This document shows, piece after piece, positions 376 through 55,123 of a stretch of 64,000 nucleotides of DNA (position 1 is the stretch's first letter; every line of letters starts with the position of its first letter). The translations under genes and the position numbers were made by a program. Source of the stretch: Glaucostegus cemiculus (lineage: Eukaryota). Location of the stretch: contig CDPCPM010000274.1 in NCBI GenBank assembly GCA_976551045.1, forward strand, positions 248,001-312,000, in the 5' to 3' direction. A model generated the notes under the pieces. That model saw only the letters and a list, made by a program, of their open reading frames with translations. It was not told the DNA's origin and made no database searches.

Positions 376-402
376 CAAGCTGGATTCGTAGGAAAGTATT
401 TT
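376..402 (-). CDS. Microexon 40 (27 nt): ENTFLRIQL (module exon A)
   Basis: cacttgcttgtttcag|AAAATACTTTCCTACGAATCCAGCTTG|gtaagg. Confidence 0.85.
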
Positions 403-497
403 CTGAAACAAGCAAGTGGAATATGAATATTCAATATTGATAAAAGAAAAAATAGATGAAATCCCGTTATACCGAGTGCATTTCTACTAACGACTGC

Positions 498-589
498 AAA
501 TCATGACTCTCTTTTCCAATCGTTGACTGTAATATTCATTATTACAGTTGAATATTACAGTCAACGATTGGAAAACCGAGTCATGATTT
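498..589. repeat. Inverted repeat/hairpin, 41-bp arms (2 mismatches), 10-nt loop
   Basis: 498-538 is the reverse complement of 549-589 except for a 2-nt internal mismatch. Confidence 0.95.
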
Positions 590-701
590 TCTACTCACTG
601 TGATGGAACCATGGCAGTTTCATCAAAAACTTATAAGAATATCTCCAGTTCGAAGTAACATCAATAGAATTAAGCTGACTCATACGCATTATCAACATTA
701 C

Positions 702-719
702 CTCTTGCAGCTGAAGATT
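702..719 (-). CDS. Microexon 39 (18 nt): xSSAAR (linker)
   Basis: T8 tract+cag|AATCTTCAGCTGCAAGAG|gtaatg; ~300 nt before an A exon, the same layout as 20574/20290. Confidence 0.78.
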
Positions 720-1919
720 CTGAAAAAAAAGTTCAAGGAGATTGTGTTAAAACTCAAGATTGACGCCGGGGAATAAAATACAGGAAAAGTCATTAATAAA
801 AAAAAAACGCAATGTAGTTGAACTTTCCGACAGTGCAAGCAGAATATTTAAGCGAAACTGAATTTAAATAGCGCAAATAACTTTTTAAATTAGTGGAATC
901 GTTACTAGATCGGAATGCAGCAGAAGTTGAAAGCGATCAGGATAAACATATGATTATTGCTGGGAATCGGAAGATGTACGTTGTATGTGCAGTTGGCGCT
1001 ACGTATAGCTTCGACTGAAAATCTTGTAGATATGCCTAAGTTTTATTTTAACGCAATGGTGAAAATAGAAGGAAATAATATCATTAGTTCGTTCCTCACA
1101 ATTGTTTGCTTTTATTTTCCGCATTTTCCAGTTTGCCAGCCCAAAGTTTCAGGAGTAATGCACAATCTATGTTTCGAGTGGATATGCCACAGATAGAATG
1201 CAGAATTTGTTGCATCATAATTGAAAATATATGAAGAGCGGAATTTGAAGTACTGAAGTACGTTTAGAATTTGATTATTCCATTCAGAGAAGCCCGAATA
1301 CCTCAGTCACTATTTCACTAGAATATAGTATAACTGAGATAATAGCAGTCGACAAAACTTGACAAGGGCACGACATCATCATCAATGAGCCCATGTAATG
1401 TAAATCATAAAGACCAATTTTCCTCAAGGGAGGAAAAAAGGGGAAAAGATTTGAAGTAATTAGCTCCAAGGGATGTATTGGAGTAGGGACTTTTTTATTC
1501 GCCCATTGGAGACAGTGGCCTACAATTTGGTTGAGGCCTGGTCACATTTTACAAAGTACATGAATTTAGCTCTGTTTCGAATGTACGGAAATGACCAGTC
1601 GATTGACTTCTTTTTTCGTCAGAAATATTGGCTGATTCAATGAAAATTAAATATTACAGATATCTACTTTGGTCTTTCTAGAAGTTATATCGAACTGCAG
1701 ATACCTATGATCGTTAGCTAATCGAGCCGGAAACTATTTAGGCACAGGGTGTGATCGAAGAGAAACTTCTGGCAGTTTCCATCGAACAAATATCTGCAGA
1801 GGAATTGTCGTTTCCTGAGTTTAGTGAGCGTTGAAGAACTATCATGTACATTTATAACAAGTCCAGTCACCAATAATTCAGCACGGTGAAGCGGGTACAT
1901 TAACCCCCCAAGATATTGA

Positions 1920-3110
1920 TCGTAGACAGTGATAGTAATGCTATTGAATGTCAGCGGGTGATAGCTGCATCTCCGCTTGTTGCATGTAGTCATTTCCTGG
2001 CACTTGCGAGGCGCCAACGTTATTTGCTACCTACCATCCCAGGTCTGGATATTGTCCAAGTCTTGCTGCATTTTGTCGTGGACTTGTTCATCTTTAGAGG
2101 TGTCGTTAGTGGTTCTGGTCATCATGCAATCATCAGCAAACATCCTTACTCCTGACACTATAATGTAAGGAATACCTGAGGCTGAGATGATTGACCTTCA
2201 TCAACCACAACCGCCTTCGATTGTGCTAAGTATGATTCCATCCAGAGGATCGGTTCTCTCTGATTCCCAAGAAAACCAGTTTAGCCAGGGCTTCCTGATG
2301 CCATACTCGATCAAATCTCTTGATATCAAGAGCAGTTATTCTCACTTCACCTCTGGGGTTCAGTTTGATTGTCCATGTTTGGACCAAAGCTGTGCTGAAG
2401 TCAGGAGCTGAGCGGCTTTGGTGGAACCTATACAGAGCTTTTGTGAGCAAGTTGTTGCTACGCAAGTGCAGCTTGAAAACACTATTTATCCCTTCCATTA
2501 CTTTGCCAATAATCTATAGTAGATTAATGAGACAGTAATTGGCCGGGTTGGATTTGTCCTGCTTCTTATAGACAGGATATAGATAGCCAACTTTCCACAC
2601 TGTATGGTAGCTGCCAGTGTTATAGATTACGCGAATAGCTTGGCAAAGGAAGAGTCAAGTTCTCGGGCACAAAGTGGAATACTATTGCCGAAGTTTTTTC
2701 AGGGCCCATTGTTGTATCGAATGTCTTTCGTGTTTTCTTGATATCGTCTGTAGTGACTGGCATTTATCATGCTGGGGACCACTGGAGGAGGCCGAGATGG
2801 ATCAGCCAATCGGCACTTCTGCCTGAAGATTCTTGAAAATGCTTCAGCGTTTTCATTTTCACTGATGCGCCGGGCACCCCATCATTGAGAATAGAGATAG
2901 CTGTAGAACATCCTCCTGCAGTGGATGTTTTTACACCACCACCATTCACGATTGGATGTTGCAGAACTGCAGAGCATGGCCCTGATAGGTTGGTCGTACG
3001 ATCGATTAGCTTTGTCTATTGCATGCTGGTTATGTTGTGTGGCGTTCAAGTAGTCCTGTCATGTAGCTTCACGAGGTTGATTCCTCATTCTGAGGCACTC
3101 CGGCTGCTGG
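1920..3110 (-). mobile_element. Degenerate non-LTR retrotransposon (CR1/L2 superclade) RT fragment
   Basis: ORF 2226-2498 contains RT motif VRITALDIKRFDRVWHQEALAKL; frameshifts and stops; boundaries approximate. Confidence 0.85.
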
Positions 3111-3519
3111 AACACATGCGCTTTATAAGAAAATACAATGACCAATTGCACACTTTTTTTTCCAACCTGACAAGCGTACACTGAGACAGAAGAATTAACA
3201 AGCAGATTAACAATTATCTACCAACAATGGGAATGGTAAATAGAGGCAAGACGAGGATCTATTTCAGATATTCAGATCGATGAAATGAAATACCAAAGCA
3301 AGAATAATATCGTGTATTGATATGTTTGTTCGTGGGCACGAGAGAGGCAAAGGTACGGGAAAAATAGAAGAGACAGTGAAAGAGAATTACACCATTGTGA
3401 CCAAATGAAGTCGGAATGGAATCATCTCTTCCTGTCCAATCGTTTCATAAAGTAAAAGCAAATCTACCTGCAAATGACATAAATTTTTCACTTCCTTGGA
3501 GCTTTAATTCTATACTCAC

Positions 3520-3531
3520 GAGATGAACTGC
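3520..3531 (-). CDS. Microexon 38 (12 nt): GSSS (linker)
   Basis: gacttttatttattttag|GCAGTTCATCTC|gtgagt. Confidence 0.6.
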
Positions 3532-10094: not shown

Positions 10095-10281
10095 NNNNNN
10101 NNNNNNNNNNNNNNNNNNNNNNNNNNNNNNNNNNNNNNNNNNNNNNNNNNNNNNNNNNNNNNNNNNNNNNNNNNNNNNNNNNNNNNNNNNNNNNNNNNNN
10201 NNNNNNNNNNNNNNNNNNNNNNNNNNNNNNNNNNNNNNNNNNNNNNNNNNNNNNNNNNNNNNNNNNNNNNNNNNNNNNNNN
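10095..10281. other. Assembly gap
   Basis: Run of N. Confidence 1.
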
Positions 10282-11457: not shown

Positions 11458-11864
11458 TGTCACAATGTTGACTGAAGAGCAAGCTCACAGAGAACCTAAG
11501 TGCAGCACACTGGTACAAGACTGGAGTCAGGATACTTCTTCAGGACCAGACACAGGCAACACTGGAAGGAATCTTGTCTCGGAGATCTGAGTAGTAATCC
11601 CAACACGAACTGAATCTTCAAGCAGGACTAGAGAACGCAGGACTGCTCTACAGTAGACCACTCTAAGCAGCTAGGAGCCAAAGTATACCTAAAGGTTGAC
11701 CAATCCACTGGCAACTAGTGCTAGAGAAACCCAAGTACTTATGCTAGGCCTCTTATGCGGCTCAGGTGTGTGTCATTATACAATCAGTCCAGCATGGAAT
11801 CCTTGTGCTGTACAACGAGGCATCCAAGGAGCCAAATCAAGGGCCAGTACTCAGAATCATGACA
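11458..11864. mobile_element. Solo LTR (407 bp), family 1, 5-bp TSD GGTAT
   Basis: TGTCA...TGACA termini; GGTAT at 11453-11457 and 11865-11869; homologous to 43007-43547. Confidence 0.92.
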
Positions 11865-11899
11865 GGTATTCTCACCTGACCTTTGAGAACGATTCTTAC

Positions 11900-11932
11900 C
11901 TGATCTTTGAGAACGCTTCAGTTTATCCAGCT
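11900..11932 (-). CDS. Microexon 32 (33 nt): ELDKLKRSQRS; alternative in-frame donor would extend the exon to 11876
   Basis: acatctgatttcag|AGCTGGATAAACTGAAGCGTTCTCAAAGATCAG|gtaaga. Confidence 0.85.
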
Positions 11933-14497: not shown

Positions 14498-14524
14498 CGC
14501 TGTCTTTATCTTTCAGTATTTTAT
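14498..14524 (-). CDS. Microexon 30 (27 nt): DKILKDKDS
   Basis: catttcaattcatcag|ATAAAATACTGAAAGATAAAGACAGCG|gtaggt. Confidence 0.83.
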
Positions 14525-14653
14525 CTGATGAATTGAAATGTGAAACTTTCAGAATCTTTTCTTGTTGCATTGCAACAATCCTGCAACAGCCGGACATTAG
14601 TGACTGGGAGAGAAGGCTTGTGAGTTCACACACTATGAGTAATCTATACTCAC

Positions 14654-14689
14654 CCATATCTTCAAAACTTCGTTTAGTATTCTCCAGTT
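14654..14689 (-). CDS. Microexon 29 (36 nt): ELENTKRSFEDM
   Basis: atgtttcattcatcag|AACTGGAGAATACTAAACGAAGTTTTGAAGATATGG|gtgagt. Confidence 0.87.
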
Positions 14690-26966: not shown

Positions 26967-26993
26967 CGCTACTTCGTTGGCATTCTTCGAGTT
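26967..26993 (-). CDS. Microexon 23 (27 nt): ELEECQRSS
   Basis: tttttcttttattttag|AACTCGAAGAATGCCAACGAAGTAGCG|gtacga. Confidence 0.82.
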
Positions 26994-27377
26994 CTAAAAT
27001 AAAAGAAAAACTACTTGAGAAATTTAAATTTATGCATAGTTAACAGTTTCCAATTCACGGTTTCCAATTCCGACAGATGTGAAGGTTTTGGTGAGTGCAA
27101 GAAATATATTTTATACATTTTTTAATGCACAAATGTAATTTGTACGCGTCTTTGTACATTTCCAACAGATATTTCTTGGTTTCCTTTGCATCACGCTGCA
27201 AGATTCTTCCCATCTTTAATGTTCTGTTGTGTGGGAGAGAAGTTAATACAAATACATCATTCCATTTTTTAATTTTCAAGCTTTTCTCTTTGCCTTTTCT
27301 CATTGAAGTATATCTAATATATGTAAAGTTTAAAATTCAATATCTTGCATATTAAAACTGGATCCCCCGACTCTTAC

Positions 27378-27404
27378 CTTTAACTTTTTTTTTCAACTTT
27401 CCTT
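27378..27404 (-). CDS. Microexon 22 (27 nt): EGKLKKKVK
   Basis: catcatgtaactacag|AAGGAAAGTTGAAAAAAAAAGTTAAAG|gtaaga. Confidence 0.78.
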
Positions 27405-27932
27405 CTGTAGTTACATGATGCAGATGATAATGTGAACAAAACAATTAGTATTCTGAAAAAAGAACTATAAGATCATTTGGAGGCGGCTCGAAATTCAGAT
27501 GAAAAATAATCTTAAAAACAATTTTTCATTTCCAGCAAATCTTCCTTGTTCTGTTTTCGATATCTACCATCAGCATTACTTTGGATACACGTTGCGGTTA
27601 CAACTTGTCACCTTTGATTAAAATCAGTCGGAATTCGTTCTGCTTAAGTCAGTCAACATAGATGTGTACGGCTGATTTCTTTAAAAATACAATGAGAAAA
27701 TACAAGTGCGAATTTTCACGTCGTTTTTCATACTTCAGCTCCGATTGCCAGAAGGTCATGGAATCATAGAATCGTAAGACACAGAAGCAGGTATTCTGGC
27801 CCCAGCATGCTACCACTTAGAATTTTTTAGCTATAACTTATTCTACTCTTCACAATTTAACGACATTTCAAAAATTGAAATAATAATAATTTAAGATGGG
27901 TCGATAGTGAATATTTTAAAAATGTTTCTCAC

Positions 27933-27968
27933 CGGTACTTTGTAGATTGTCTTTCAATTTTTCTAGTT
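27933..27968 (-). CDS. Microexon 21 (36 nt): ELEKLKDNLQST
   Basis: atacgcttatttccag|AACTAGAAAAATTGAAAGACAATCTACAAAGTACCG|gtgaga. Confidence 0.87.
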
Positions 27969-31000: not shown

Positions 31001-31027
31001 CATTATCTTTGGCGAGCAGTTCTTGTC
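31001..31027 (-). CDS. Microexon 19 (27 nt): xQELLAKDN
   Basis: gggtttttttcag|GACAAGAACTGCTCGCCAAAGATAATG|gtactt. Confidence 0.8.
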
Positions 31028-31799
31028 CTGAAAAAAACCCAACCGTAAACACATCTTAGAACTGCATTTTACACAGAACACGCTTAGGCTACTGGGGAAA
31101 TACTTAAGGATGTTAGAAAATAAAAGAAATGCTTTGTTTCTAATTCAAACCAAATATCATGATGCAACCTGTTGAGGATATTATTCGTTCACTTTTAAAA
31201 TTCAATTTATTCGCTATAAAGTTAATTATGGAACTGCAGGTTCTTGTGAAGATTGGAATCCTCCCGCCCTTACATTCAGAAATGCAGCTGTTGAAAGCTG
31301 TCCAGAAGGGATGTTAGTTAATGAATATGGACTGCTAAATGAGAATGGTGTCCGTTTCAAATATAAATACATTTGATAATAGCTGTTTATGCATAATTGT
31401 ATCCCATGACCTTCTGAAACACCCACTTTATGAACTTATTTATCGTCATCAAGCAACATTACAGACTTACATATCTAACGGCTGATAATATTCCGATTTC
31501 ACATTCATGGGGCTTCCAGTCACCACTTAGGAGATGTAATTTCCTAATTTATTAAGCTAATCAGTTTCTTACTTCTCAGTTATGGTGTTCAAAGATCGTA
31601 CATGTTCCACTTTTGTTGGTTTCTTGATCTAGCATTTTCTACCCACAGCTTCCTTAAAGTGACAATGAGATCAGCTGCAAATTTCAAAATTCTGGAAAGC
31701 TTAGTCCATTTCGCTCAATGTTTCCTCATTGGAGGACCTCGCCATTCTGGGAGCCAAGCTAGCGAACATTCGACGCAGCACATTATTCGCTAGTAAGAA

Positions 31800-32030
31800 C
31801 TTTTACAAGTTAGAGAATAGAGTTGTACAGTATGTTCCAGATGCTTTTCACCAAAGCTTTATAAGAAGTTGAAAGCCGCTTCTAATTCGGAATGTTCTTG
31901 CATTGAGGGTTAACATACCATTCGTCTTCCTCATTGCTTGCTGTACCTTCGCATTAACCTGCAGTGATTCGTGTGCAAAGGTACTTAGATCCCCCTCAAC
32001 ATCAAATCTGCTGAAATCAGTCTCTCGACA
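31800..32030 (-). mobile_element. CR1 ORF2 remnant
   Basis: HESLQVNAKVQQAMRKTNGMLTLNAR in ORF 31848-32147. Confidence 0.7.
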
Positions 32031-32390
32031 GTTTGACCATGAGGCCCATAGCCTTTCAAGATAACACATTAACCTCAGCATTTTCTCAGGGATAGCAACG
32101 GACAGACAATAAATTGCTTGCCTGCATTCGAAACTAACTTTGAACAACTCTGCAACTACTCAGAACTTGATTTCTAGCATCCTCATCTGGGTTCTCAATG
32201 TAAGGAACTTGCAATAAAATATGCATTATCAGACGTGCTCAATGCGTGGTCATTATATTTTCATTAGTAACAATATATCGCATATAAGCCGCAGTGGCTT
32301 GATTCCCTGTCTGCAGAGCACTAGAAAATCCCTAACATCAATGTTCATGTTATGCGTCCTGAGATGAGGGAATGAGAATTGAATACTAAC

Positions 32391-32417
32391 TCGTAGATTC
32401 ACGAAGAGCATGCAGTT
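32391..32417 (-). CDS. Microexon 18 (27 nt): ELHALREST
   Basis: tactctttttcttcag|AACTGCATGCTCTTCGTGAATCTACGA|gttagt. Confidence 0.75.
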
Positions 32418-32536
32418 CTGAAGAAAAAGAGTATAATTATTTGTCATTTCAGAAAAGCCAAACATGAAATACTCTATGACTTTGAAAAGTTGTCAGCGAT
32501 ATTATCATATCAAACCAACTTAACCGATCAACATAC

Positions 32537-32563
32537 CCGCCCTGAGTGCATCTAATCGCTCAT
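32537..32563 (-). CDS. Microexon 17 (27 nt): DERLDALRA
   Basis: gtgttgtattttacag|ATGAGCGATTAGATGCACTCAGGGCGG|gtatgt. Confidence 0.82.
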
Positions 32564-33293
32564 CTGTAAAATACAACACGTTCTTGAATGTAATCTTTGT
32601 CGCAACGACTAGGTTACATTGACATATAACTTAACTTTGTAGCATTGCTAAAAGTTAATAAAGGGGATAGTGTTCAAACCAGCTTCCTCCTGCTATTGCC
32701 TGATGAACCCGTTTGCTTGAGGTTACAAGACCTCTTTGCTAAGAGTATCACTCTATGCCCCATATACTTGAAGTAGGCAGAGAAAACGATTATGCTCCAG
32801 GCAACATATTGTTGACGCCGCGCCCCTAAGAAATATATATGACATCTGACGGCAACTTAAAGCTTTACATACTATCCAGAGACTGCTCAGCATTTTTAGG
32901 ATTCTGTTTTTGGTTTATTTAACGATTCTGATCTGCCTTTCACGGATTCAACATGTTTCCTTTCTACGCGTTTTCTCCCTCCCTCTAATATAGTAACTAA
33001 GCAGTTCTGCAAACATCGGTATTGCCTTGAAAACACGAGGCTCACCCCATCGGAGATATTGAATTTATCCTTCCAGGTCTTAACACCAACACCAACGTAA
33101 AACTATCTTTTTTTTCTGTATCACTTCTACTTCCTAGGAAGGATTTTCAACCCAAAATGGTAACTACGTTTCTATTTCCACAACGAACGTCTGACCTGCG
33201 GAGTGTTTCCCGACGTTGTGGTTTTAGTTCAATTACCATTGTCTGCTGTATTTCATTTTTAACTATATCACCGTCAATTTTTGTACGACTCAC

Positions 33294-33317
33294 CACTGCC
33301 CATCAAATTGTCCTGGT
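33294..33317 (-). CDS. Microexon 16 (24 nt): DQDNLMGS
   Basis: gttctttttaactacgcag|ACCAGGACAATTTGATGGGCAGTG|gtgagt. Confidence 0.78.
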
Positions 33318-36287: not shown

Positions 36288-36381
36288 ATTTCCCATTAAT
36301 TGGGATACATAGTAAGTTTGTTTTGTTAATGATTAAAATGAAACAAAACAAACTTACTATGTATCCCAATTAATGGGAAAT
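36288..36381. repeat. Perfect inverted repeat/hairpin, 40-bp arms, 14-nt loop
   Basis: atttcccattaattgggatacatagtaagtttgttttgtt (36288-36327) is the exact reverse complement of 36342-36381. Confidence 0.97.
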
Positions 36382-36768: not shown

Positions 36769-36795
36769 CTCTATCTTTTAACTCTTTCTCTTTTT
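36769..36795 (-). CDS. Microexon 13 (27 nt): EKEKELKDR
   Basis: cctttgattctttgcag|AAAAAGAGAAAGAGTTAAAAGATAGAG|gtaata. Confidence 0.83.
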
Positions 36796-36956
36796 CTGCA
36801 AAGAATCAAAGGAAAACGTTATGAAAGAGAACGCGCCTTCCATGGACAACTCCTTCTCAAAGTAGTTAATTAATTACTTCATGTTATATTTCTAATTCTG
36901 ATCCAAGTAATATGTTCGATTTGTCGCCGCTGTACTAATTGTTTCTATCAATGTAC

Positions 36957-36977
36957 TTGATCGTCTTGTGTTGATTG
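36957..36977 (-). CDS. Tentative microexon (21 nt): AINTRRS
   Basis: aattcttatttccag|CAATCAACACAAGACGATCAA|gtacat; good acceptor, weak donor. Confidence 0.3.
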
Positions 36978-38899
36978 CTGGAAATAAGAATTTGGAAAAG
37001 AAGGTGATCCTCTCGTGGCATTTATGTTTCCGCGTGTCTGCGACAAGGAGCTTATGCGAGGACCAGCTGCTCATTGAAAAATATATAGAAATGCTCTTCA
37101 TCGTCACAGGACAGAGCTGTGGAGAAATGTGTTGCTGCTGGCAGTTTTCAATGATTTCATTTCTTCATCAGAAGACATGATTGCTGAGCCACATTATATT
37201 GAAACCCATGATAGCTAGTTATTGGGATAGCAAATAAATAATACTTTACAAGGATGTCATTCAGGACTAACGATCAGATCAGGCAAACTTCTAAATTTAG
37301 AAGCGTTTAGAAAGTTCACTGAACTTTATACTCTTACATTTTATCTTATTATGATATGAATACTTGTGTATCAACCGCAACCGATATTAACACCTAACTT
37401 ATTCCTCGCAATAGTCAAGTGCCACAGTATATCCGCAGGAAAGCCACGTTAATGACGTCAAGGGCATATTTGCCGTCTTATTTTTGAATTGTGCTCATTG
37501 TCCTTTACTGTTAGGATATCACCAAACCCCTGGATAACAGGAAACAGGTCTAGATGTTGCTTATTTAATTGCTTAGTCGACATTGCAGGAAATAAAATTA
37601 TTGAAAATTATAGCAGGTTTGCCGTTATCTTCATGGGGCAATGCACTTTGATGTTAATGGATCTATGATCTACAGATTTGCAAGAGGAAGTTGTAGCTAA
37701 GTGAGATGTATTATTGGCGCAGTGAACGATTTTTTCATATGGTCATCATATCTGCACAATCCAGATTTATGTTACTGAACATTACAGGAATGCATGCACG
37801 TAAAATGCAGACTTATCTCACCTCTTGCTTATGGAATGGCGATCTTAAAAATCTGAGTAGTTTAACACAATTGGTTTCTTGCCCCCGATTTCATGATTGC
37901 CACAACCGGCCAATGAAGATTAGCTACATTCAATGGACTTGTTTGTTCAAATTAATACTCCGACTATTTATTTTAAATACCACATTCCCAAGTAATTTTC
38001 ATGTCGAATGAAGTTTATCATGTATGTCATTTCGTTTATTTTCACTGTTCTCTGATTTTCTTACTTACATATCTTTTACCCTCTGATATTCCCCATCAGA
38101 TATATCGCCAGGCGGTTGAGGAGACAAAAGCCTTCAGAAGGCCGTCAAAATATCTCTGGCATATGGTGGTTTCAGTTTGAAGTACGCGAGGCCGATTCTC
38201 CGCTTGTACCCCACCCTGTCTTGTTCAAAAGCCGTGGCACCCGGCTTTCTTGCTCACAGGCAGCCACCATGTTGCAAAGTTAATGCGAATTTGTCAATTA
38301 CGGAGAATTAGAACAAAAATTTGTGCTTGGTAAATAAAGGACAAACCGATGTCGTAGGGATCATCCTTAAAGATACAGCTGAATCTTAGCTCCATCTCAT
38401 TAGTAATGATGCTAACAATAGCAATATAATTGATAACGAATTCCCCTTAAGCCTGGAAGGAAATCCTCGCTTGCTTCAGTAAAATCACGCGATCACTATA
38501 CATTCACCAATCTCAAAGTAAAGACAAGAACTGGTAAGCATTATCGTCTCGTTACCCACAGTTGCCATTATAAAGGTAAGTGTTAACATCAAGTTCGTTC
38601 GGCTTTTGGTCACTGTCCATATTACATCGGACTTCGTCATTGTAAATATGACACATTCCCCACACGAGAGAGCCGGATAAAATTGATGTCTTCCAAGAAG
38701 GAAGGAATTTATTTCAACACCCTAGTGCTTTGATATTGAAATTACATTTAATAAATTAAATATTAACTTCTAAATTTGAGAACCCAAGACTGGTCACTTA
38801 TCACACTCCTGGTGCCCTGATGTACTCAAAGGACGTCCATAATTTTGCAGTTTAAGTAAAAATGCATTTGGCTGATGGAAACATGAAACACTTCAAGTT

Positions 38900-39230
38900 T
38901 AAGAGTAAAATGAATGGCAGCAAGAGCAGTCCAGCCTCATGGACCGATTCAAAACCATGGTTGATCTTGAATCACAACCAATTTCCTGATTGATCCCCAA
39001 ATCCAGTTCTCTAACATCCAGATATTTATCTACCTCACATTTGCATGCAACCAAGGATCTGCACATCCTTCCACGGCAGAGAATTGTAAAGATCCATCAG
39101 GCTTGGTGTGAAGACATTTCTCATCATTTCAGTACTATATAGCATACCCAATGTACTGTGACTTTGGCTCTTATTTCTGGTTCCTCAGTAAAGAGAAAGA
39201 CCATCCCCATGTTTACTTGCAGAGACACAA
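38900..39230 (-). mobile_element. CR1-like 3' remnant
   Basis: ccatggttgatc...tttatctacctc...ggcagagaattgtaaagat...gtgaagacatttctcatc pattern; approximate. Confidence 0.5.
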
Positions 39231-39658
39231 GTTAATTGAGTATTTTACTCAGAAAATGCACGGAAAAAGCACAATAGCGTTGCCTATGAACTAGTTAAAA
39301 CACACCAAATGACACTTTTGATTTTGTTGTTCATGAATGATGAAGCCTTGGAATAAATATTCTCTAATAAGTTTCTAAGCGTGCGATAGGACACTTTAAG
39401 AAGAATCTGTTAAATGGTCATCTGTTTCAAACAATATGAACAGAATAGTAGCCATGCTTCCAATTTGCTTTGCTATTTTATTTGTTGCAGCTTTAACCTA
39501 ATAATTTTAGATGAAGCAAGCAAATGGTTGTGTGAGGGTGTAGGATATACACAGTTTCTCAATTATTACCATTATATTTTCTTTCATTTCTGTTCCATAA
39601 ACAAATATGGGACCCCCGTAGAGTTCTGACAGAAGTATTGAGCGGTGTTATTACGAAC

Positions 39659-39685
39659 CTGAAGTTTTAATAAGATTTTCCAGCT
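39659..39685 (-). CDS. Microexon 12 (27 nt): ELENLIKTS
   Basis: tcattacttcacttaacag|AGCTGGAAAATCTTATTAAAACTTCAG|gttcgt. Confidence 0.78.
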
Positions 39686-40300
39686 CTGTTAAGTGAAGTA
39701 ATGATAACAACAATGAAAAAACAAACAAACACGTTATGCACCACTTTGTAGACGTGACCACCTGATAAAAGTATGCTGTGTTTATTCCGTGGTAAATGAT
39801 TGGCAATGTATCATACCAGTTGAGTGATAATGAACAGCAGATCAAGGAGCAGAAAAGAAATCTCATGGAATTGTTTCGCACAAACCCATTCGGTTCATTT
39901 TAATATTAAAACAAGTTTAGCTTTATTACAGTTTCGCAGAGAACTCTGGCTTGCTTAATTGCACAGTCATCTTATTCCTGGTTTCCACACCTGCAACATC
40001 AAAGTAAAAAAAAAAAAATACAGGAGATCAGATGTCAGCGTATCCGACAACAGCATCCACTGGTGAACTTAATGCTGATTCCTACAGCACTTCACATCTG
40101 GGCAGAACGGAGCTTTCGGGAGCAATTCGTATTTACCCCATTAGCGTGGCACCAGGGACGGAGTAATCTTGAATAGAAGCGTACCTTCAGGTAACGGTCT
40201 TTGTTTTTATTTTAAAAAATGATTTGATTGATTTGATGAACAAAGTTGCTTTTAAACGAACGCATCTAATAACCTATTTATTTATTTATCCATTTATATA

Positions 40301-40852
40301 NNNNNNNNNNNNNNNNNNNNNNNNNNNNNNNNNNNNNNNNNNNNNNNNNNNNNNNNNNNNNNNNNNNNNNNNNNNNNNNNNNNNNNNNNNNNNNNNNNNN
40401 NNNNNNNNNNNNNNNNNNNNNNNNNNNNNNNNNNNNNNNNNNNNNNNNNNNNNNNNNNNNNNNNNNNNNNNNNNNNNNNNNNNNNNNNNNNNNNNNNNNN
40501 NNNNNNNNNNNNNNNNNNNNNNNNNNNNNNNNNNNNNNNNNNNNNNNNNNNNNNNNNNNNNNNNNNNNNNNNNNNNNNNNNNNNNNNNNNNNNNNNNNNN
40601 NNNNNNNNNNNNNNNNNNNNNNNNNNNNNNNNNNNNNNNNNNNNNNNNNNNNNNNNNNNNNNNNNNNNNNNNNNNNNNNNNNNNNNNNNNNNNNNNNNNN
40701 NNNNNNNNNNNNNNNNNNNNNNNNNNNNNNNNNNNNNNNNNNNNNNNNNNNNNNNNNNNNNNNNNNNNNNNNNNNNNNNNNNNNNNNNNNNNNNNNNNNN
40801 NNNNNNNNNNNNNNNNNNNNNNNNNNNNNNNNNNNNNNNNNNNNNNNNNNNN
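40301..40852. other. Assembly gap
   Basis: Run of N. Confidence 1.
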
Positions 40853-41369
40853 CTGTTCAACTGTATTTAAGTTTCTGATAATGACCTATTCTGTTAGCGA
40901 TCCTTTGAAATTTGTTCCCTGTTTGTCTCCAACGTCACACCATCACCAGCATCATCATCTGTTTACTGGAACGCCTACAGTGAGTACAGGCCTCAATCTG
41001 TCTCAACTTTGATTAAGTTTGCAAAATTATTGGGGGAGAGATTATTTAGACTGCGAATCTCTGAACACGGTCGATTAATCTGTTCAGTTCAATCCGAATA
41101 TAATACATCTTCTGAACACAGTTTCAGATGACTGACATTATAGATAGTTGTTCACGACTAGCACCAGGACAAGAACCATGCCATTAATTTCTCCGAATTC
41201 CATAGAATGCTTCCAGTTTTTTATGTAATAATTTTCTGATAAATGTGGACATATCCAAAGGGAACCTTCAAAGGACATTTCTTTTAAATTTTGCCTTGAA
41301 GATCAATGCCATCTGGACAAAATTCTAGTTCATATCAATATGTTTCCTGTATTATCGTGTCTACTAAGA

Positions 41370-42505
41370 ATTGTAACAGAGATGTTTCCAAGCCTTTTCT
41401 GTTTCACTTTTGATAAAGTAGGAATAGTGGATACACAAAACGGACATTTCCTGGAGCCGTTTATAATGTGCTGGTTAAAAGGTTAGCACGGAAAGAATGT
41501 TCATGATGTTGGCGGTAACGTATTAAACTGGATAGAAGGGAAGCTGTCTTAGAGACCATATGCAGTGGAATTAAAGTGTCTTTCTCTAGTTGGCAAGATG
41601 TCACATGTAATATTCCACAGATATCAGGTCTGGAGCCTCAGGACTATATAAATCGTCTGGATGATTAGACCAAAGACAGGGTCAAAATTTCCAATGACAT
41701 AAAAGTAGTTTAGAAAGTAAACTATGATGACATAAGGTCATATGTAAACTTGTTCAGTTCGTTGACCACTGTAATGTATGCAAATGTAAAATGGTCTTGT
41801 TTGATAGGAATTATAAAAAAAAATGTTTTTTAACGGGTGATTTGTTGCAGAACTCTGAGGTGCACATGGATCTAGGTACCAATAACATGATTCAATAAAG
41901 AATGAACAATAAATACTTATGAGAGATAAGAGATTATCATTGCTTGTTGTGAGCATTATTGAACTAAATGGAATGCGATGTCTCATTTAGTCCATTGGTA
42001 AGACCAGATATTCTGTATTACTCTAACAGCGACGAGTGATTTTCTTGGAAGAAGTTTACTCTTTTACCAGACTGATGCCTGGAGTGGGCTTGTTATCCTG
42101 GGGTTGTTCGCAAAGGTTATATTTTATTGATTGCAGTTTGGAAGGGATGACTTAATTATCTAAGTGTCTGATGGGTCTTGGCAGGTTGTATTGAAGAAAA
42201 TCCGTACTTTCATAGGAGAATTTTAATCTCTGGTAACTACGTTAGAAATAAAGTGTTGTCAATTTAAGATTGTAACGAAGCGATATTCTTTTCTCTTTTT
42301 TTACAGACACTCAAATGTTTGAAATGATCCTCATCTAATTGCAATAGAATCGTGTTTTTACAGATGATTCTTGATCAGCAATTGAATGAAAAGTAACGAC
42401 GGATATGAGGATATGTAGAATTGAATTTGCACTCATATCAGTTATAACCTTTTACATGAGGGAATTTCATCGAGTGGCAGTCGGCTCCTCTTGCTCATAT
42501 GGTAT
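41370..42505 (+). mobile_element. Highly degenerate CR1 LINE (RT to 3' end)
   Basis: ttccaag...tttgataaagta, gtcttctctagttggcaagatgtcac, ccattggtaagacc and CR1 3' UTR motifs in colinear order. Confidence 0.7.
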
Positions 42506-42591
42506 AACAATGGACATGCCTTTTATCACATTAACATGTAATCGTTGTGATTCTTTGTTGGTACCCCAATAACATACTTGGTTCGCATTAC

Positions 42592-42618
42592 CTCTCTGCT
42601 TTTCAAACATCTGATTTT
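42592..42618 (-). CDS. Microexon 11 (27 nt): ENQMFEKQR
   Basis: gttttctttgcttacag|AAAATCAGATGTTTGAAAAGCAGAGAG|gtaatg. Confidence 0.85.
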
Positions 42619-43006
42619 CTGTAAGCAAAGAAAACAATTATTTGATCAATGAAATCAAAGAATGAAAAAAAAAAGAAATCGATTGCTAAAACATGTGGTA
42701 CTTATTGTTTTCCTGAATACATACACGAAAAAACTGCAGTGGAAGAATGCATGGGACACTGAGAATCCAAAGAATGAAGCAGAACACCGAAAGACAGGCC
42801 GCAGGTCTGCTTTACGCATATTCTCACGAGATTATAAATATGGCAGGATCATAAAAAGTCGTGGTGGTCCAGAAAGTTTTGGGATACTCAGAGATAAATA
42901 GCAAATTAATACAAGGCTTATAACCCATATTTAGATTGCAATACATCACGGCTTACTAGGGTGAGTGGATATATAAATTTTACAGATATGTACCACAGTC
43001 TCAAAC

Positions 43007-43547
43007 TGTCACCTTGTTGATTGAAGATCAAGATCACAGAGAACCCAAATGCGGCACACTGGTTCAAGACTGGAGTCAGGATACATCCTCAGGACCGGAC
43101 ACAGGCAACATTGGAAGGAAATCTTGCCTCGGAGATCTGAGTGGTAATCCTAACACAAACTAAATCTTCAAGCAAGACTAGAGAACACACACTGGTACAA
43201 GACTGGAGTCAGGATCCTTCCTCAGGACCGGACACAGGCAACACTGGAAAGAAATCTTGCCTCGGTGATCTGAGTAGTAATCCCAACACAAACTGAATCT
43301 TCAAGCAGGACTAGAGAACGCAGGACTGCTCTAGAGTAGACCACTCTAAGCAGCTAGGAGCCAAAGTATACCCGAAGGTTGACCAATCCTCTGGAAACTG
43401 GTGCTGGAGAATCCTAGGTACTTATGCTAGGCCCCTGATGGGGCTCAGGTGTGTGTCATTATGCAATCAGTCCAGCACGAAATCCATGTGCTGGACAACG
43501 AGGCATCTAAGGAACCAAATCAAGGGCCAGTACTCAGAATCATGACA
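43007..43547. mobile_element. Solo LTR (541 bp), family 1, 5-bp TSD CAAAC, with internal ~130-bp tandem duplication
   Basis: TGTCA...TGACA termini; CAAAC at 43002-43006 and 43548-43552; block cacactgg..gactagagaac present twice. Confidence 0.92.
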
Positions 43548-44869
43548 CAAACTCGTTTACGGACTGGAAATAATATATTTCATTATGCAGAATAAAACAA
43601 GACCAGCTGAAACTCGTTGACAATTTTGTGCACATTGAATTTCGTGGCCTGGGAGGCATTGCTTAGAAGCTTGCTTAGTAAGTTACGAACTATATAAACA
43701 GTGCCTTTCGACATTTATATCTGTAATAGAATTACTGGAATAAAGTGGCAACTCTATCCAGGAAACAACGTGCAATTGATGAGATCTATGTCCTCATATG
43801 CTTTATTGCATTGGACTGTAATATTAGTGCCATTTCGAAAGTGCATCGTATCACGCTTTAGCAAAGCTTATTTTTATGCTGATATCAATGATCTAATTTT
43901 TGATTTTTGTCAAAACTATATTATCGTTTGGCCGCCTGCAGTCACAACGCAATATTGTTGCACATAATGACAAGTAGAATCGAACGGATTCGAAGTAATT
44001 CAGTAAACTGGACACTGCTGTGAAAACAGAGAACGAATTAATTCTAGATAAGTTCTTGCAAGATGCACAACTAAATGTGAACCGGTATAAAAGGAGCAAA
44101 CGAGTTAATATTGCCTCGTGTCTTGCTGTTTCCAAATTTAACTTATTGACCGTAATATACTATTTTCATTGTGCTTGATTATTTCAGTCTGTTATTATCT
44201 ATCGCCATGCACAAAACTATTTTGATTGATAGAAACATTACAATACAAAAGTCTAACTGTTCATTATTATATACGGATGAGAGTAATACTAAATGTCTGG
44301 TAGAAGAACGCATTTAGCTTGAACTGCCGAATCGAAAATGTATCTTCGTTTTTTATTCTTGAGATTTCCATTGTGACATAATCCGCTCTCCCAGCATTTC
44401 CATTGATTTCAAGTGCATCAACAAACGGTTGGCATCACTGGGTACAGCAAAGATGACAGGACCAGAAGAAAAAATCAATTTTATTACTGAATACACTTTC
44501 ACTACACAACGTCTGCAAAGCTGTGGGAAAACTGTGACAAAACTGAAAGGGACCCAAATTGGAAATTGCACGAATTAGTTCAATTCACAAAAATGAAAAA
44601 GCTAATTAGTCCTGTTACCGTTCATTTAGTCCACTGTCGTTTATTATAAAAAAATGATGGACTCTTATCCTTAAGAAAGAAACCACTTTGTCATCAATCA
44701 CAAACTCAGATGTGTGCTGTTTGGGAATATCAGGACCAGATCTTTGACATTCTTGGTTCTAAATTTTATTTCAGAGCTGAATTCCAGGGGTGACTATTCT
44801 TCACATGAAAACAGGACTTTGCTGAGTATCACAGCAAAGCTCCCGGGTAAGATGAAAACAATGAGCACG

Positions 44870-45800
44870 AAATGGGAAAGAAAAATACGTTGATTGGAGG
44901 TTAACCATCGCATAAGGAAATGGTTGTGGTTATTGGTGTTCGATTATCCGAGCCAAATCGAATCACTGTAAGAGTTTTTCAGAGTATCGCCCCTCGTCTA
45001 ATCCATCTTTAACTGCTTCATTCGTCACTTGCTTTTCATCTTGTCGCAAGTGATTGTCCAACGTTCAATTCCATTTGCTCTTCCTAAGTGAATGCCGCCA
45101 CACACGCTGACAGGCAGCAGGACTGCATAACAGCCCTGCACAGGTATATTAGTGATAAGTAATATTTACAACAATGTCAGGCAATAACCAACAAGAAAAA
45201 ACATAATAATTGAACTTAAACATCGAATGTCCATCCAGATTAATATCCAGAGCAGCAATATTGAATACGAGTACAACTAATACATTCACATCAATGCCAC
45301 TGCTACCACAACAGGCCACAGATTTGATATCCTGTGGCGAATGACTCCTTTACTGATGCTCCAACATATTTCTGTCCTAAACAATTCACAGGTCAGGAGA
45401 GAAGTAAAATGTTTCCCATCCTCATCCTCAGGTTAGCATAGCTCCGAAAATTCTTAAGAGACTCGGCAGTAGATAGGACAAGGAAGCTGGCTTGATGCCG
45501 TCTAATAATAAGCCTGAACATTAATTCCTCCAACTCCAGCAAACAATGTTGGCAACGAGTGACATCTGCAAAAGGACTTACAGATCCTCACTCAGACTAC
45601 TCCGTCAGCAAATTACAAACACGTGATCTGTACCAACAAGAATGGCTCTGTCTGCATATCTGTAGGAAGACGACTACTTGCATATTCTGCGTCAAGTTAC
45701 ACACCATTCGGATTTTTGGAAAAAAATACATTGCCTGCCCTCCATCGTTGCCGCATCTAAATCCTGGAGCATTGCACTGAATAGCCACATGGGTGTATCT
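44870..45800 (+). mobile_element. Degenerate LINE RT/3' fragment related to 1920-3110
   Basis: tggagg..aaggaaatggttgtggttattggtg...ccatctttaactgcttcatt resembles the reverse complement of the 2150-2260 region. Confidence 0.55.
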
Positions 45801-45930
45801 GTATTGCTGCAAGAAATACAGCTGCTCAAGGGCTAGGCACACCATGAAAAAAGATGATAAACTACATTCTCAAAAATGAGGACAATTATTTGGCACTGCG
45901 GACACCAGAAAGACATAACGATCTATTTAC

Positions 45931-45954
45931 CTCTTTCTTGATATTTGTTCAGTT
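45931..45954 (-). CDS. Microexon 10 (24 nt): ELNKYQER
   Basis: tcaatttatctttccag|AACTGAACAAATATCAAGAAAGAG|gtaaat. Confidence 0.83.
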
Positions 45955-49979: not shown

Positions 49980-50254
49980 GAGTGTTGCGGTTCGAGTAAT
50001 GTTATTACAGCGCCAGCCATCCGGGTTCAGTTCCGGCCGCTGTGCATAAGGAGTTTGTACGTTCTCCCCGTGTCTGCGTGTGTTTCCTCCGGGTATTCCG
50101 GTTTGCTCCCACGTTCCAAAGAGGCACGGGTTAGGAAGTTGTGGGCATGCTATGTTGGCGCCGGAAGCGTAGCGACACTTGTGGGCCGCTCCCAGAACAA
50201 TCTACGCAACATATACATTTCTCTGTGTTTTTCGATGCACATGTGACTAATAAC

Positions 50255-50256
<2 letters not shown>
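49980..50256 (+). mobile_element. tRNA-derived V-SINE, same subfamily as 15384
   Basis: Colinear similarity to 15384-15679, ending at a (CT)n microsatellite. Confidence 0.88.
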
Positions 50257-50309
<53 letters not shown>

Positions 50310-51387: not shown

Positions 51388-51414
51388 CTAAATTTTCACG
51401 TACTCTCTCGAGAT
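51388..51414 (-). CDS. Microexon 8 (27 nt): DLERVRENL (module exon C)
   Basis: cctgtgctttcttttag|ATCTCGAGAGAGTACGTGAAAATTTAG|gtaggc. Confidence 0.83.
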   Translation of the reverse strand: MSREYVKI

Positions 51415-53060
51415 CTAAAAGAAAGCACAGGGAAAATCGTCTTAATCTCAGAACAAATTTATACCTTAAGTTAATAAGAACAATGCAGTAGACAATATTT
51501 CTTTTCAAATTATAGCTTTATTGATACCGACCCTCAAATATCATGTTATTATCTCTGCCGAATGTAATGTGTTTTCTCTGTAAAACGCGGTCTTCGAGAC
51601 GTATGAAGGAAATATATATGTTACTGTAAAGTCAAAGAGCAGGATATGTGTCAATGGGAGCATCTAAATAATGGCCTGTTGTTACTCTTTTCTTGGGAGT
51701 GGCTTTAACCTGAAGATCCTAATTCCTGCCTCCCACTCCGTGGCTGGATCATTTACCTTGGCAGGAACACCGAGTACCGAACAACCCAATCTTATGTTGA
51801 CCCAGCGCTAAGAGACTGCAGCTTCGTCAATATCCATGTGTAATATAGACGTGTTATTTTATTTCCTCCTTGCGCATTCCTTTGCAGAATGTTTTGCTAC
51901 CCTTAATGTGAAAAATAATGGATTTATGTTCAGCTCGTTTTCTTACTTCGCGATCCAAGGGACGGAACTGGTACTCTAAACTCTGCACAACATAACCCCA
52001 ATCACATCTTCGCCAAATTTCCACTGCACTGACGGACAGCTTCCGTCTATTTGATTATCCTTTCTTTTGAATAACTCTTGTGAATAACCATAATGAGGCT
52101 GATACTCAGAACCAGCCATCTCTTCACATTCAATCAACAAATTCCATTTTGTTCTTTACAACTGATCTGACCAACCTTAAGGTGTTTCGAGCTGTCATAA
52201 TCATTATAATTCCATCAGCTGAATGGATCAAGCCAGCATTTTAAGGCTTTGGTGCAAATCCCCTCGGCACTAGTAAGCAATTACCTAGAGGCAGTTTAAG
52301 TCAGACGTTGATGATTGAATCCACGCCTGTCTTCTTAAACTGAAAGTGGTAGTAGTAATCGGTTTTTCAATTTATTTCAGACAGCAGAGGGAGATCGCAG
52401 ACAGAATTTAGGCTCTGACATGAACGACTTCTTCACAATGATGAAGCAAATCATCTGCCCAGGATTGCAAGGATCAGTTTGGTTAGATTGCTAAATTGAA
52501 GTCAATACCTGCTGTTAGTAAGTTCACTATTTCGAGTGAAACTGGAAGGACATAGGTGCAGCATCACTGGAAATGACCGTGTGATTAGAAGTTGCAGATC
52601 ATGAAAATATTCATCATTGACGTACTCTTTTCCGCTCACCATTGATCTGCAGGTCTGTGCTTCATACTGGGATAGCTAATATATGGCAGATTTCGAAATG
52701 ACAGCTGAGAACGCAAGTAAACAAAGACAAATTCACCTCTTCAGCCAATCAAACGCTCTTAGTGTCCGTTTTCAGAACTAGCAATTCCATCATAGAGGAC
52801 CAATTAGATACAGAACCAGCAATTGACCTAGTCACGTTAGATAGAGAGGGAACATAGATTATGTTTTCCCCATTCATTCAAATATTAAGGATAGTTTTTA
52901 TTTTAAATTACATGAGATAAACACATGAAAATACATATGCCAAGGTGTCATTTCCGAAGATCCTGAAATAAATGTTCACTCTATGCTGGAACTCTTGTTA
53001 TTCAGGCAATTTACTTTAAGTTGAATCTATACTGTTCGAAGAAAATTATCAAGATATTAC

Positions 53061-53084
53061 CTTTTACTTGAGCAACTTTGTTAA
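53061..53084 (-). CDS. Microexon 7 (24 nt): INKVAQVK (module exon B)
   Basis: gtatttgtttattttag|TTAACAAAGTTGCTCAAGTAAAAG|gtaata. Confidence 0.82.
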
Positions 53085-55096
53085 CTAAAATAAACAAATA
53101 CAATGAATTTAGTTGCATCCAACGATCTATTTTTCGTGATGTTAAATACTTATTTACACAGTAACACTATACAGAATACCCAATAAGTAGTTAGAGCCTG
53201 TTCCGTTTAGGTGAATCATTTTTGTGTTCGGAAATCCCGTAAACGTTTGGTGGCTAAAAAGTAACGTCGGAGGGGGCGGGGTGGGGGGAACCATAAAGCT
53301 CATTAATTCCAGCAGAGTTTTTCCGATTTATACTGACAAGTTTGATGATACTGGTGGAGTTGCACCTCGCAAAATCTGCTCTCTGGGGATATATTTGTAA
53401 TATTATACCGAATATTAAACGATATATCTTCTGTCTTGTGTAATTGCATGGAGACAATAATACATCTTTCTTCCCTTTCCAGTGACGTAGTTTTGGAGAG
53501 ACATGGACACTGTCGACTTTAAACTAGGTTCGGAGAAAGTACGAGGACAAAGTTATCCATGTGACTCCGAAAATATCAACATTTGTCAACCAAGGAAGAC
53601 AGCTAGATTCGACCACATTTTGCCGTGGGAAATTATTCAACAATGTATTGTAGTCACAATTTAGGCGAGGAAAATATGCATTTTTGTTGTTGGTGAACAA
53701 GGTGTATTATCAACGCGTCATGCATAATGGAATGGATGTGTGAATTTGTTCTGAGAGAACAGTTAAATGGGAACAAATACACCATTTCTTATTATTGGAA
53801 CAGTCAGTTAAATATAGATTAATTATCAAACGATAAGAACAACAAATTTAATAACGGATATTCTGTTTGGTAACAGGTACTGGCTGTTTGCTACTTCATA
53901 AGTTTCATTCATGTAGTTTGAATGAGAACGTCAAAGCAGAAATCGAGACATAACAAAAATAATCAGGCGTCTTCTGCATAGTCCTATGCATGTTATTCGA
54001 TCAGATGATTGCATCTTTGTCAAAGTACCTTGCGATAGAATGTCCAAGGAAATCGCGGTAAAATTTCCGTGTTGGGAGAATGCGAAGGAAACTTGACAGT
54101 GGTCATCTAAATTTGCAGGGATTTAGTTTTGCAACTTTGAATTCACTCTGGTTAGAAATAAACTAAATCAAACATTGTCATTGATAATGGACAAAGTGGA
54201 ATAAGTAATTGTCTACGGCAAAACCAAAGTGGGTTGTGTGTTTCATCAAACAGTAAGCAATGATATAGTTCTGAAGATTTTACTGAGAACAGAATGAAAG
54301 TCTGGAAATGTCGTCTCAATGTTATTGTGATTTTCCAATGAGAAGCCGCCGAAACGCGTATTAATATTGTTTAAATAGAAAAGGCAACAGGGAAACGTGT
54401 CGTGTTTGAGTATCTTTAACGCAACAGTGTAAGTCCAACGGGGCTTCAAGAAAATAAGAAAAAAATGAGGTTCTTTATATGATAGAGAAAACCATGCAAG
54501 TCCTTAAAAGGCCAGACTTTCTGGAAGCATTGTGTTGTTTTATTTGCATTCTTTGGGGAAAATATCCAGGATTGTTGAAGGGGAAGGGGTGTGTCGAAAG
54601 AGGTGTACTTTCCCTTTAATTATTTGGAAGCCTGCGCCAGTGCATGGAGGCCCGAAATCCTGGAGAGGTGCGTTCAAGGTGATGGGGAAAATGCTCGGGG
54701 TGGAAAAAGGCCTTTTCTGCTCTAAAACAATGAAAGAAACAGATAAACAAACTAAATCATAACGTGTCAAAAGGTCTTTGATAATAGTTTGCGATTTGTT
54801 TTGTCATTAATCTACCACAGAGTTGACTGAGATATAATAAACAGAAGGACCTCCATGGGTGTGCCTGCTATTAATTAACGCATTGAAATTCGCAATGGAT
54901 GGTGACAAAAACGGGTAGCATCTTACCCAGCACACTTTATGAGCAGATTTAAAAATAAACTGGTAGACACTTGAATGAAGTGAATATTGGGTAATTTTTC
55001 TGATAGATTTATAAAAATATATATTTGCATGCTTTGCTTATTCCACACAGCTTAATTTAAGATAAAAGAATTTCAGAACAACAACTGATACTTTAC

Positions 55097-55123
55097 TGAA
55101 TTGTATGCGGAGGACATCATTCC
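55097..55123 (-). CDS. Microexon 6 (27 nt): xNDVLRIQF (module exon A)
   Basis: tttgttttattgcag|GGAATGATGTCCTCCGCATACAATTCA|gtaaag; similar to exons at 20290, 8478, 376. Confidence 0.8.

Follow-up and report, generated by a model that had tools for sequence, protein, structure and literature searches.

The window (the whole stretch of 64,000 nucleotides analysed here) probably holds, judging from its letters, an internal stretch of a single large protein-coding gene of a vertebrate, which would encode a long, soluble, segmented coiled-coil rod. On the minus strand, about 42 symmetric phase-1 micro-exons of 12-42 nt are distributed across 62 kb and encode 393 residues with no stops, and at least 36 of them are well supported. 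Within this array, a four-exon module (A-B-C-D) recurs (Table 1).

Micro-exons of the minus strand

With generic splice thresholds (3/3), 19 candidate micro-exons are found on the minus strand versus two on the plus strand, and the length of 18 of these 19 strong minus-strand candidates is a multiple of 3. Among the 18 frame-preserving candidates there are no stops in phase 1, compared with nine in phase 0 and eight in phase 2. A branch-point-like motif is observed upstream of 22 of 41 exons, versus 29% of random sites. Regarding their lengths, 24 of the 42 exons have 27 nt, eight have 36 nt, five have 24 nt and none has 21 nt. Long symmetric exon candidates are at background level (three on the minus and two on the plus strand), and the predicted rod contains no hydrophobic run of more than four residues. 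Presumably, the exons are joined in order by splicing.

The exon set was partly curated, as 30 seed exons were picked by eye. Six exons (59176, 57520, 28990, 23203, 4733 and 3531) were kept despite scoring below 5 bits in the locus-trained model, and the candidates at 52541, 51982, 46439, 43069, 39990, 39183, 35160, 19812 and 4306 were left out. A micro-exon gene of this design would escape ordinary annotation and homology search, because just 1.2 kb of the 62 kb of the locus are coding.

Table 1. Predicted exons and blocks, 5′ to 3′ along the minus strand
Feature	Positions	Strand	Remarks
End of preceding rod segment, 36-27-36-27-36 nt	62211-62176, 61097-61071, 59176-59141, 58775-58749, 57520-57485	-	59176 and 57520 below 5 bits in locus-trained model
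S/T/R/P-rich linker exon ahead of A1	57520-57485	-	Last exon of preceding segment
A1, 27 nt, opening exon of module 1	55123-55097	-	Held-out rank 1/284; weak donor
B1, 24 nt	53084-53061	-	Held-out rank 1/287
C1, 27 nt, X type	51414-51388	-	AG/GT ends; ends TTAG
D1, 27 nt, Y type (ExxL)	48189-48163	-	AG/GT ends
Second-type 35-aa block, 24-27-27-27 nt	45954..36769 (exon starts 45954, 42618, 39685, 36795)	-	
21-aa block, 36+27 nt	34271-34236, 33507-33481	-	
24-27-27-27 nt block, copy 2	33317..31001 (exon starts 33317, 32563, 32417, 31027)	-	
X exon, 36 nt	30092-30057	-	11.2 bits
Y exon, 27 nt, predicted by heptad arithmetic	28990-28964	-	Atypical AAG acceptor
36+27 nt block and final 27-nt X exon	27968..26967 (exon starts 27968, 27404, 26993)	-	
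Linker exon ahead of A2, 27 nt, G/S/D-rich	23203-23177	-	Weaker
Second linker exon ahead of A2, 18 nt	20591-20574	-	
Module 2	A2 20316-20290, B2 19116-19093, C2 16676-16650, D2 15327-15301	-	
Segment 2 rod exons (36, 27, 27 and 33 nt)	14689-14654, 14524-14498, 13192-13166, 11932-11900	-	Alternative donor of exon 11932 at 11876 gives 57 nt instead of 33
Linker exon ahead of A3, 36 nt	9868-9833	-	
Module 3	A3 8504-8478, B3 8104-8081, C3 5588-5562	-	
D3, 42 nt, fused to linker-like residues	4733-4692	-	Weak acceptor
Linker exon ahead of A4, 12 nt	3531-3520	-	Uncertain
Second linker exon ahead of A4, 18 nt	719-702	-	
A4, 27 nt	402-376	-	Held-out rank 1/284; remainder of module 4 presumed beyond window

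Domain searches and family

None of the 69 minus-strand open frames of at least 70 aa in the window matched an Ig V-set, transmembrane or B30.2 family of Pfam. Matches below the cutoff to PID_2 (47776-48000), Sterol-sensing and RWP-RK were taken as chance; the PID_2 open frame had no match in PDB. A profile of eight 33-36-nt exons found nothing at E<=10 among 1998 candidates (proteins of 71-2000 aa) and, with 1.84 billion representatives searched, nothing at E<=0.001, both being searches of low power, and gave a single unrelated match in PDB (E=7); the A-exon profile also gave one unrelated match (E=9.9). These blank protein searches carry little weight, because the window's own joined exons score just ~31 bits in a local test. 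A reverse-transcriptase relic used as a control query had no match among 41 candidates, and no matches were obtained in Rfam. The DNA pattern of the A exons was absent from metagenome contigs, its four matches in the window being circular and excluded from the counts. Such a gene is not described in the literature searched, a body with thin coverage of subscription papers.

By analogy of exon design, the gene may well belong to a type of giant micro-exon genes that end in B30.2 (butyrophilin/BG-like). There is a smaller chance, about which we are doubtful, that the same rod belongs to another family, being either the neck that a type II membrane protein (C-type lectin/scavenger-receptor type) carries outside the cell or the product of an unrelated micro-exon coiled-coil gene. 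Type II membrane proteins of this kind have 21-residue neck repeats on phase-1 exons, 21 residues being also the length of the CD23 stalk repeat, and such necks use one exon per repeat. The 36+27 nt block described here encodes 21 residues, as the CD23 stalk repeat does, and neither end of the gene is fixed by anything in the window. The C-terminal lectin domain and N-terminal signal anchor typical of a type II C-type lectin with a coiled-coil neck do not occur in the window. However, the splitting of the rod into exons of 8, 9 and 12 residues is nearer to the BG/butyrophilin pattern than to one exon per repeat. In its design the rod resembles the tails that chicken BG and butyrophilin genes encode in heptad exons. 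In a butyrophilin/BG-like protein ending in B30.2, it would form dimers that keep the B30.2 binding domains apart at a distance.

Heptad-closed blocks and repeated modules

Exons that do not correspond to heptads add up to blocks that do: 36+27 nt encode 21 aa, and two kinds of 105-nt block, A-B-C-D (27+24+27+27) and 24+27+27+27, encode 35 aa. The A-B-C-D module is one of these three heptad-closed block types, something that the earlier note overlooked. The last exon of every block is of the 27-nt ExxL type and starts at register position 5. A single register is maintained over 177 residues. When one heptad frame is followed from A1 across 15 exons, 20 of 38 hydrophobic residues fall at a/d (p=0.004), and over 19 exons, including the predicted exon 28990, 26 of 46 do so (p=0.0004); on 18 exons, with exon 28990 omitted, p=0.09. 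An ad hoc heptad path score was exceeded by none of 150 exon-order shuffles. In segment 2, two consecutive Y exons break the register, and no X exon that might be missing there turned up when the interval from 14498 to 13192 was searched. Exon 28990-28964 was located after heptad arithmetic had called for a missing exon; it is the best candidate of its interval and comes first when 264 unused AG-27-GT candidates from the two strands are ranked (score 8.0, runner-up 7.1). Heptad closure, which has already led to one hidden exon, offers a testable rule on exon duplication: frame symmetry would be insufficient, and a block would need to complete the heptad as well.

A non-helical linker rich in S/T/R/G had been proposed ahead of each A exon and, in agreement, the pre-A exons are low in E/L/K/Q (0.19 vs. 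0.49, p=0.0017). The register at the four linker-to-A joints (5, 3, 4 and 1) is not conserved. The single frame running from A1 and the reset at each linker support the predicted hinges, and with them the rod of joined coiled-coil segments suggested earlier. After every hinge rich in S/T/G/R, the conserved A-B exons would start the coiled coil anew, by nucleating or capping it. The loss of register across these joints would also be expected if the modules, each beginning at an A exon, served as alternative cassettes or were short tandem genes in their own right, and the linker exons are the weakest predictions. Nevertheless, we consider this quite improbable, as no candidate for a first, terminal or long coding exon is found between segments and every A exon has an acceptor, 257-2361 nt downstream of a phase-compatible exon.

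As to the module itself, the A, B, C and D exons that had been named are all present on the minus strand, in phase 1 and with AG/GT ends, except for D3 at its 27-nt donor, and the three C exons (C1, C2 and C3) end in TTAG. The 27-24-27-27 nt pattern, claimed to occur three times, is exact only in modules 1 and 2, because D3 has no GT at 27 nt; the exon reaches 42 nt with its earliest in-frame donor and has an acceptor score of -2.9. Donor scores are also weak in A1 (-3.5) and A2 (-2.0). Of the fourth module expected at the window edge, exon A4 is present but nothing more lies within the window, with no B-like exon in positions 1-375.

The likeness between modules goes beyond chance, with p values of 0.003-0.008. 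When every triple of four-exon runs in 41 exons is compared, the A-B-C-D runs come out on top, and none of 200 residue shuffles equals their match. The best four-exon triple was matched by one of 400 exon-order shuffles, with p=0.004 under free shuffling and p=0.008 when exon-type alternation was kept (1000 shuffles each). If the runs are shortened to two or three exons, a triple other than the A-B module scores best, and for three-exon runs this is still observed when five weak exons are removed. Held-out A exons ranked first among 284 unscored AG-27-GT candidates in four of four tests and held-out B exons first among 287 candidates in three of three, while the C exons ranked 3, 1 and 4 of 285. 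Only the linker, A and B are module-specific, which the earlier note likewise overlooked; C and D, whose nearest neighbours are often outside modules, are generic rod exons. It is highly improbable that the micro-exon gene is real and the module a selection artefact among similar coiled-coil exons: C and D do resemble many other exons, and of the 13 module exons three score weakly for splicing and were taken in from the motifs of the earlier note, but held-out A and B exons were top-ranked in seven of seven tests (unscored candidates, both strands), each B comes after an A, and the type-preserving shuffles gave the low p value mentioned above (0.008).

The exon classes also carry traces of their age. 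Within classes, codon identity at positions 1, 2 and 3 is 46, 60 and 33% (54, 70 and 39 of 117), versus 28, 33 and 30% in other exon pairs, and the same codon is used at 13 of 40 identical residues. These data, with saturated third positions, fit the ancient multi-exon duplication under protein-level selection that had been proposed. The two copies of the 24-27-27-27 block share 9 of 47 residues (including the exon after the first copy; p=0.013). Corresponding introns had been described as dissimilar; this holds for their flanks, which show no excess of identity (0.294 vs. 0.279, sd 0.042), but in modules 1 and 2 the introns between C and D have a common repeat of 276 nt, 87% identical and in the same orientation. 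The sequences around this repeat are unrelated and a portion of it is found again elsewhere, so that it looks like independent insertions. A duplication relic was rejected, as the flanks are unrelated and 87% identity cannot predate saturated third codon positions.

Whole blocks would have been duplicated in tandem long ago to lengthen the rod, since only such duplications preserve both the reading frame and the heptad register. A larger unit, consisting of the linker, A-B-C-D and the following blocks, would have been copied at least four times, and block gain or loss after copying would have produced segments of about 186, 88 and 50 residues. Skipping of whole blocks may likewise lead to rods of differing length.

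Comparison with BG and butyrophilin genes

Should the gene end in B30.2, the map of modules would show how the rod is divided into segments in an undescribed butyrophilin/BG-like lineage of early-branching jawed vertebrates. A more ambitious idea, which we put forward only tentatively as rather unlikely, is a giant gene, conserved among cartilaginous fishes but unannotated, with a two-level exon grammar: non-heptad micro-exons would be gained, lost or skipped solely as heptad-closed blocks, these would be nested in hinge-plus-restart modules, and block-wise splicing would tune a B30.2-tipped molecular ruler or tether. If true, block-wise alternative splicing would set the length and number of segments, and this splicing-programmed, variable-length rod would have no described counterpart.

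The coiled-coil tail of BG genes derives from split-codon exons of 21 nt, some of 18 or 24 nt (PMC5938342, PMC4046983), the number of which varies from 13 to 36 per gene (PMC4046983, PMC5938342). Likewise, butyrophilins carry short heptad exons ahead of B30.2 (PMC6790196), which form the coiled coil of BTN3A, BTN2A1 and relatives (PMC10665462), and butyrophilins have been reported in cartilaginous fishes (PMC12841164).

As in chicken BG, a long coiled coil would here be assembled from a large number of tiny symmetric exons whose first codon is split, as indicated by the phase-1 exons and their heptad periodicity. The coiled coil of chicken BG is cytoplasmic. In contrast to BG, where 21-nt exons encode one heptad each, none of the 42 exons has this length and the heptad is closed only by blocks of two or four exons; additionally, linkers interrupt the rod, modules repeat, and 42 exons extend over 62 kb in the window alone. 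BG and butyrophilin genes have an N-terminal IgV domain and a transmembrane exon, and butyrophilins and TRIM-type B30.2 proteins a C-terminal B30.2 (PRY-SPRY) exon; none of these is seen in the window, the 5′ end of the gene lying beyond position 64,000 and its 3′ end beyond position 1. Butyrophilins such as BTN3A and BTN2A1 also use short exons for their coiled coil, but they have few heptad exons, whereas the predicted rod comprises more than 390 residues and at least 36 well-supported exons.

Micro-exons on the minus strand

The exons named in the earlier note are all present on the minus strand and, as far as sequence alone tells, they are real. When candidates of 18-45 nt were collected with a generic splice matrix whose training was independent of the locus, thresholds of 3/3 returned 19 on the minus strand versus 2 on the plus strand; length was a multiple of three in 18 of the 19, and none of these 18 had a stop when read in phase 1, whereas the two other phases had stops in 9 and 8. 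Thresholds of 2/2 gave 36 versus 7 candidates, and stops occurred in 1 of the 28 symmetric candidates in phase 1 versus 15 and 16 in the other two phases. A model trained on the locus gave 2 plus-strand candidates above 5 bits.

The working set of 42 phase-1 exons (named by their 5′ start) encodes 393 residues without a stop, with 24 exons of 27 nt, 8 of 36, 5 of 24, 2 of 18 and one each of 12, 33 and 42, and the final base is G in 38. It was partly curated, with seed exons picked by eye: 59176, 57520, 28990, 23203, 4733 and 3531 were kept although the locus model gave them less than 5 bits, and 52541, 51982, 46439, 43069, 39990, 39183, 35160, 19812 and 4306 were left out. From 55123 to 30057, a 10-bit cut-off returns exactly the 15 exons used, 4 of them non-seeds. 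The DNA is AT-rich (GC about 0.36-0.41 outside gaps) and contains retroelement relics and dispersed repeats, the latter presumably resembling cartilaginous-fish SINEs; further micro-exons could be hidden in the three intronic assembly gaps.

Features of the window (window coordinates)
Feature	Position	Remarks
A exons, A1 to A4	55123-55097, 20316-20290, 8504-8478, 402-376	minus strand
Second 35-aa block, 24-27-27-27 nt, two copies	45954-36769, 33317-31001	minus strand
45-nt phase-1 candidate	19768-19812	between A2 and B2; A-like LRI motif at end; weak donor; excluded from model
Intron of 129 nt	14498-14689	between two rod exons, both included in the coordinates; in frame, stop-free; two acceptors similar in sequence; potential read-through, a behaviour described for BG tails
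Young 24-nt tandem duplication	11868-11919	covers the end of exon 11932-11900 (3′) together with its donor and creates another donor, in frame, at 11876; exon of 33 or 57 nt depending on the donor
SINE-like repeat, about 275 nt, two copies	15392-15666, 49981-50256	C-D introns of modules 2 and 1, same orientation
Pieces related to SINE-like repeat	26114-26359, 58051-58161	
133-nt tandem repeat and dispersed copy	43055-43547, 11458-11864	92% identical; probably a mobile-element fragment
Broken LINE reverse-transcriptase relic	1718-3184	minus strand, intronic; Pfam RVT_1 E=0.0074, below cutoff
Two short palindromic elements, MITE-like	498-589, 36288-36381	self-complementary 87% and 92%
Assembly gaps (N), three	10095-10281, 28661-28830, 40301-40852	inside introns

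The repeated module and its age

The best triple of non-overlapping four-exon runs is the very one that had been described as a module (A-B-C-D) repeated three times, and the module is beyond chance. Shuffling the exon order reached its score once in 400 trials, and shuffling residues never did so in 200; with 1000 shuffles, p was 0.004, or 0.008 with the alternation of exon types kept. As a check on circularity, held-out exons were ranked among all open AG-n-GT candidates of both strands, splice scoring omitted: all four A exons came first of 284, all three B exons came first of 287, and the C exons came 3rd, 1st and 4th of 285, and a profile from two A exons alone placed the remaining two at ranks 1 and 4. 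Counting against the module, shorter runs (two or three exons) have a top triple built from generic rod exons, and dropping five weak exons does not change this at a run length of three. The three modules have 10-13 of 35 residues in common. We hold with high confidence that the micro-exon gene is real, and we hold the same of the module.

The proposed exon lengths of 27-24-27-27 nt apply to modules 1 and 2; in module 3, no donor follows the first 27 nt of D, which reads 42 nt and is preceded by a poor acceptor. Additionally, C and D represent two exon types that alternate throughout the window, with 3 same-type neighbours (p=0.001): X has a hydrophobic residue at position 2, and Y has ExxL. 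The module-specific part is the non-helical linker ahead of A together with A and B. As for the fourth module suggested at the window edge, A4 was found and a B-like exon is absent from the last 375 nt beyond it; since A-B introns in other modules span 373-2012 nt, this absence leaves the fourth module unrefuted.

Ancient duplication under protein-level selection agrees with the codon pattern. Among the 117 comparisons made within classes, identity was seen in 54 at codon position 1, 70 at position 2 and 39 at position 3 (28, 33 and 30% in other exon pairs), 13 of 40 identical residues have the same codon, and similarity of intron flanks is at background level. The duplications are old, and it is at the protein level that the likeness is maintained. 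The reported dissimilarity of corresponding introns holds for these flanks and needs one correction: 1 of 12 self-alignment matches joins corresponding introns, through a 276-nt repeat, 87% identical, between exons C and D in modules 1 and 2. The flanks of the two copies are unrelated, and the 3′ half of the repeat is found again near 26.2 kb. The chance that one such pair would lie in corresponding introns, calculated by hand from intron lengths, is about 1 in 75, and the placement is a mild coincidence; the repeat is too young to be a relic of exon duplication.

Heptad-closed blocks and proposed hinges

The closure of exon blocks on whole heptads is a feature absent from the earlier note. 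No exon of the working set is one heptad long, yet blocks add up to whole heptads: 36+27 nt gives 21 aa, A-B-C-D gives 35 aa and 24-27-27-27 nt gives 35 aa, the two copies of the latter having, with the next exon, 9/47 identities (p=0.013). From A1, exon starts modulo 7 run 0,2,3,5 / 0,1,3,5 / 0,5 / 0,1,3,5 / 0, and a single frame over 15 exons puts 20/38 hydrophobic residues at a/d (p=0.004, exon-order shuffles). Because the pattern is broken at two adjacent 36-nt exons, a 27-nt Y exon was predicted to lie in the stretch from 30057 to 27968. The top candidate there, at 28990-28964, ranked 1 of 264 unused candidates of both strands (8.0; runner-up 7.1) and has an atypical acceptor. With it, the frame spans 19 exons and 177 residues, with 26/46 at a/d (p=0.0004; without it, p=0.09). 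In segment 2 (segments being rod stretches between linkers), the frame is held over six exons (p=0.019), followed by two successive Y exons between which an X exon was sought and not found. The first and third segments are short, and their register is not significant alone (p=0.10 and 0.17). Heptad paths were scored with an ad hoc scheme of our own. A segmented, register-locked coiled coil is the likely structure.

The hinged rod proposed previously is supported by the exons ahead of A, which are poor in E/L/K/Q (fraction 0.19 vs 0.49, p=0.0017), and by a register that is constant inside segments and free between them (A starts at 5, 3, 4 and 1 relative to the preceding segment), as would be expected for flexible joints. 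A exons are spaced about 186, 88 and 50 residues apart, and the A-B exons may restart or cap the coil after each joint.

Comparison with known designs

Ig, transmembrane, lectin and B30.2 families were found in none of the 69 minus-strand open frames of at least 70 aa; of four sub-cutoff matches, one was a reverse-transcriptase relic and three were judged to be chance. Homology searches with exon profiles, which are weak searches, found no homolog, and such a gene was not found described in the literature covered, subscription papers and supplements being outside its scope. A B30.2/butyrophilin-type identity is favoured by a narrow margin. Micro-exon heptad rods are a known design; the multi-exon block rule with hinge modules was not found described. 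The closest published designs are the chicken BG tail, built from 13-36 split-codon exons that measure 21 nt, or in some cases 18 or 24 nt (PMC5938342, PMC4046983), and the butyrophilins, with few heptad exons ahead of B30.2 (PMC6790196, PMC10665462, PMC12841164). The window gene would work like the BG tail but departs from its 21-nt exons, and it would be similar in working to the butyrophilins but lacks their small number of such exons.
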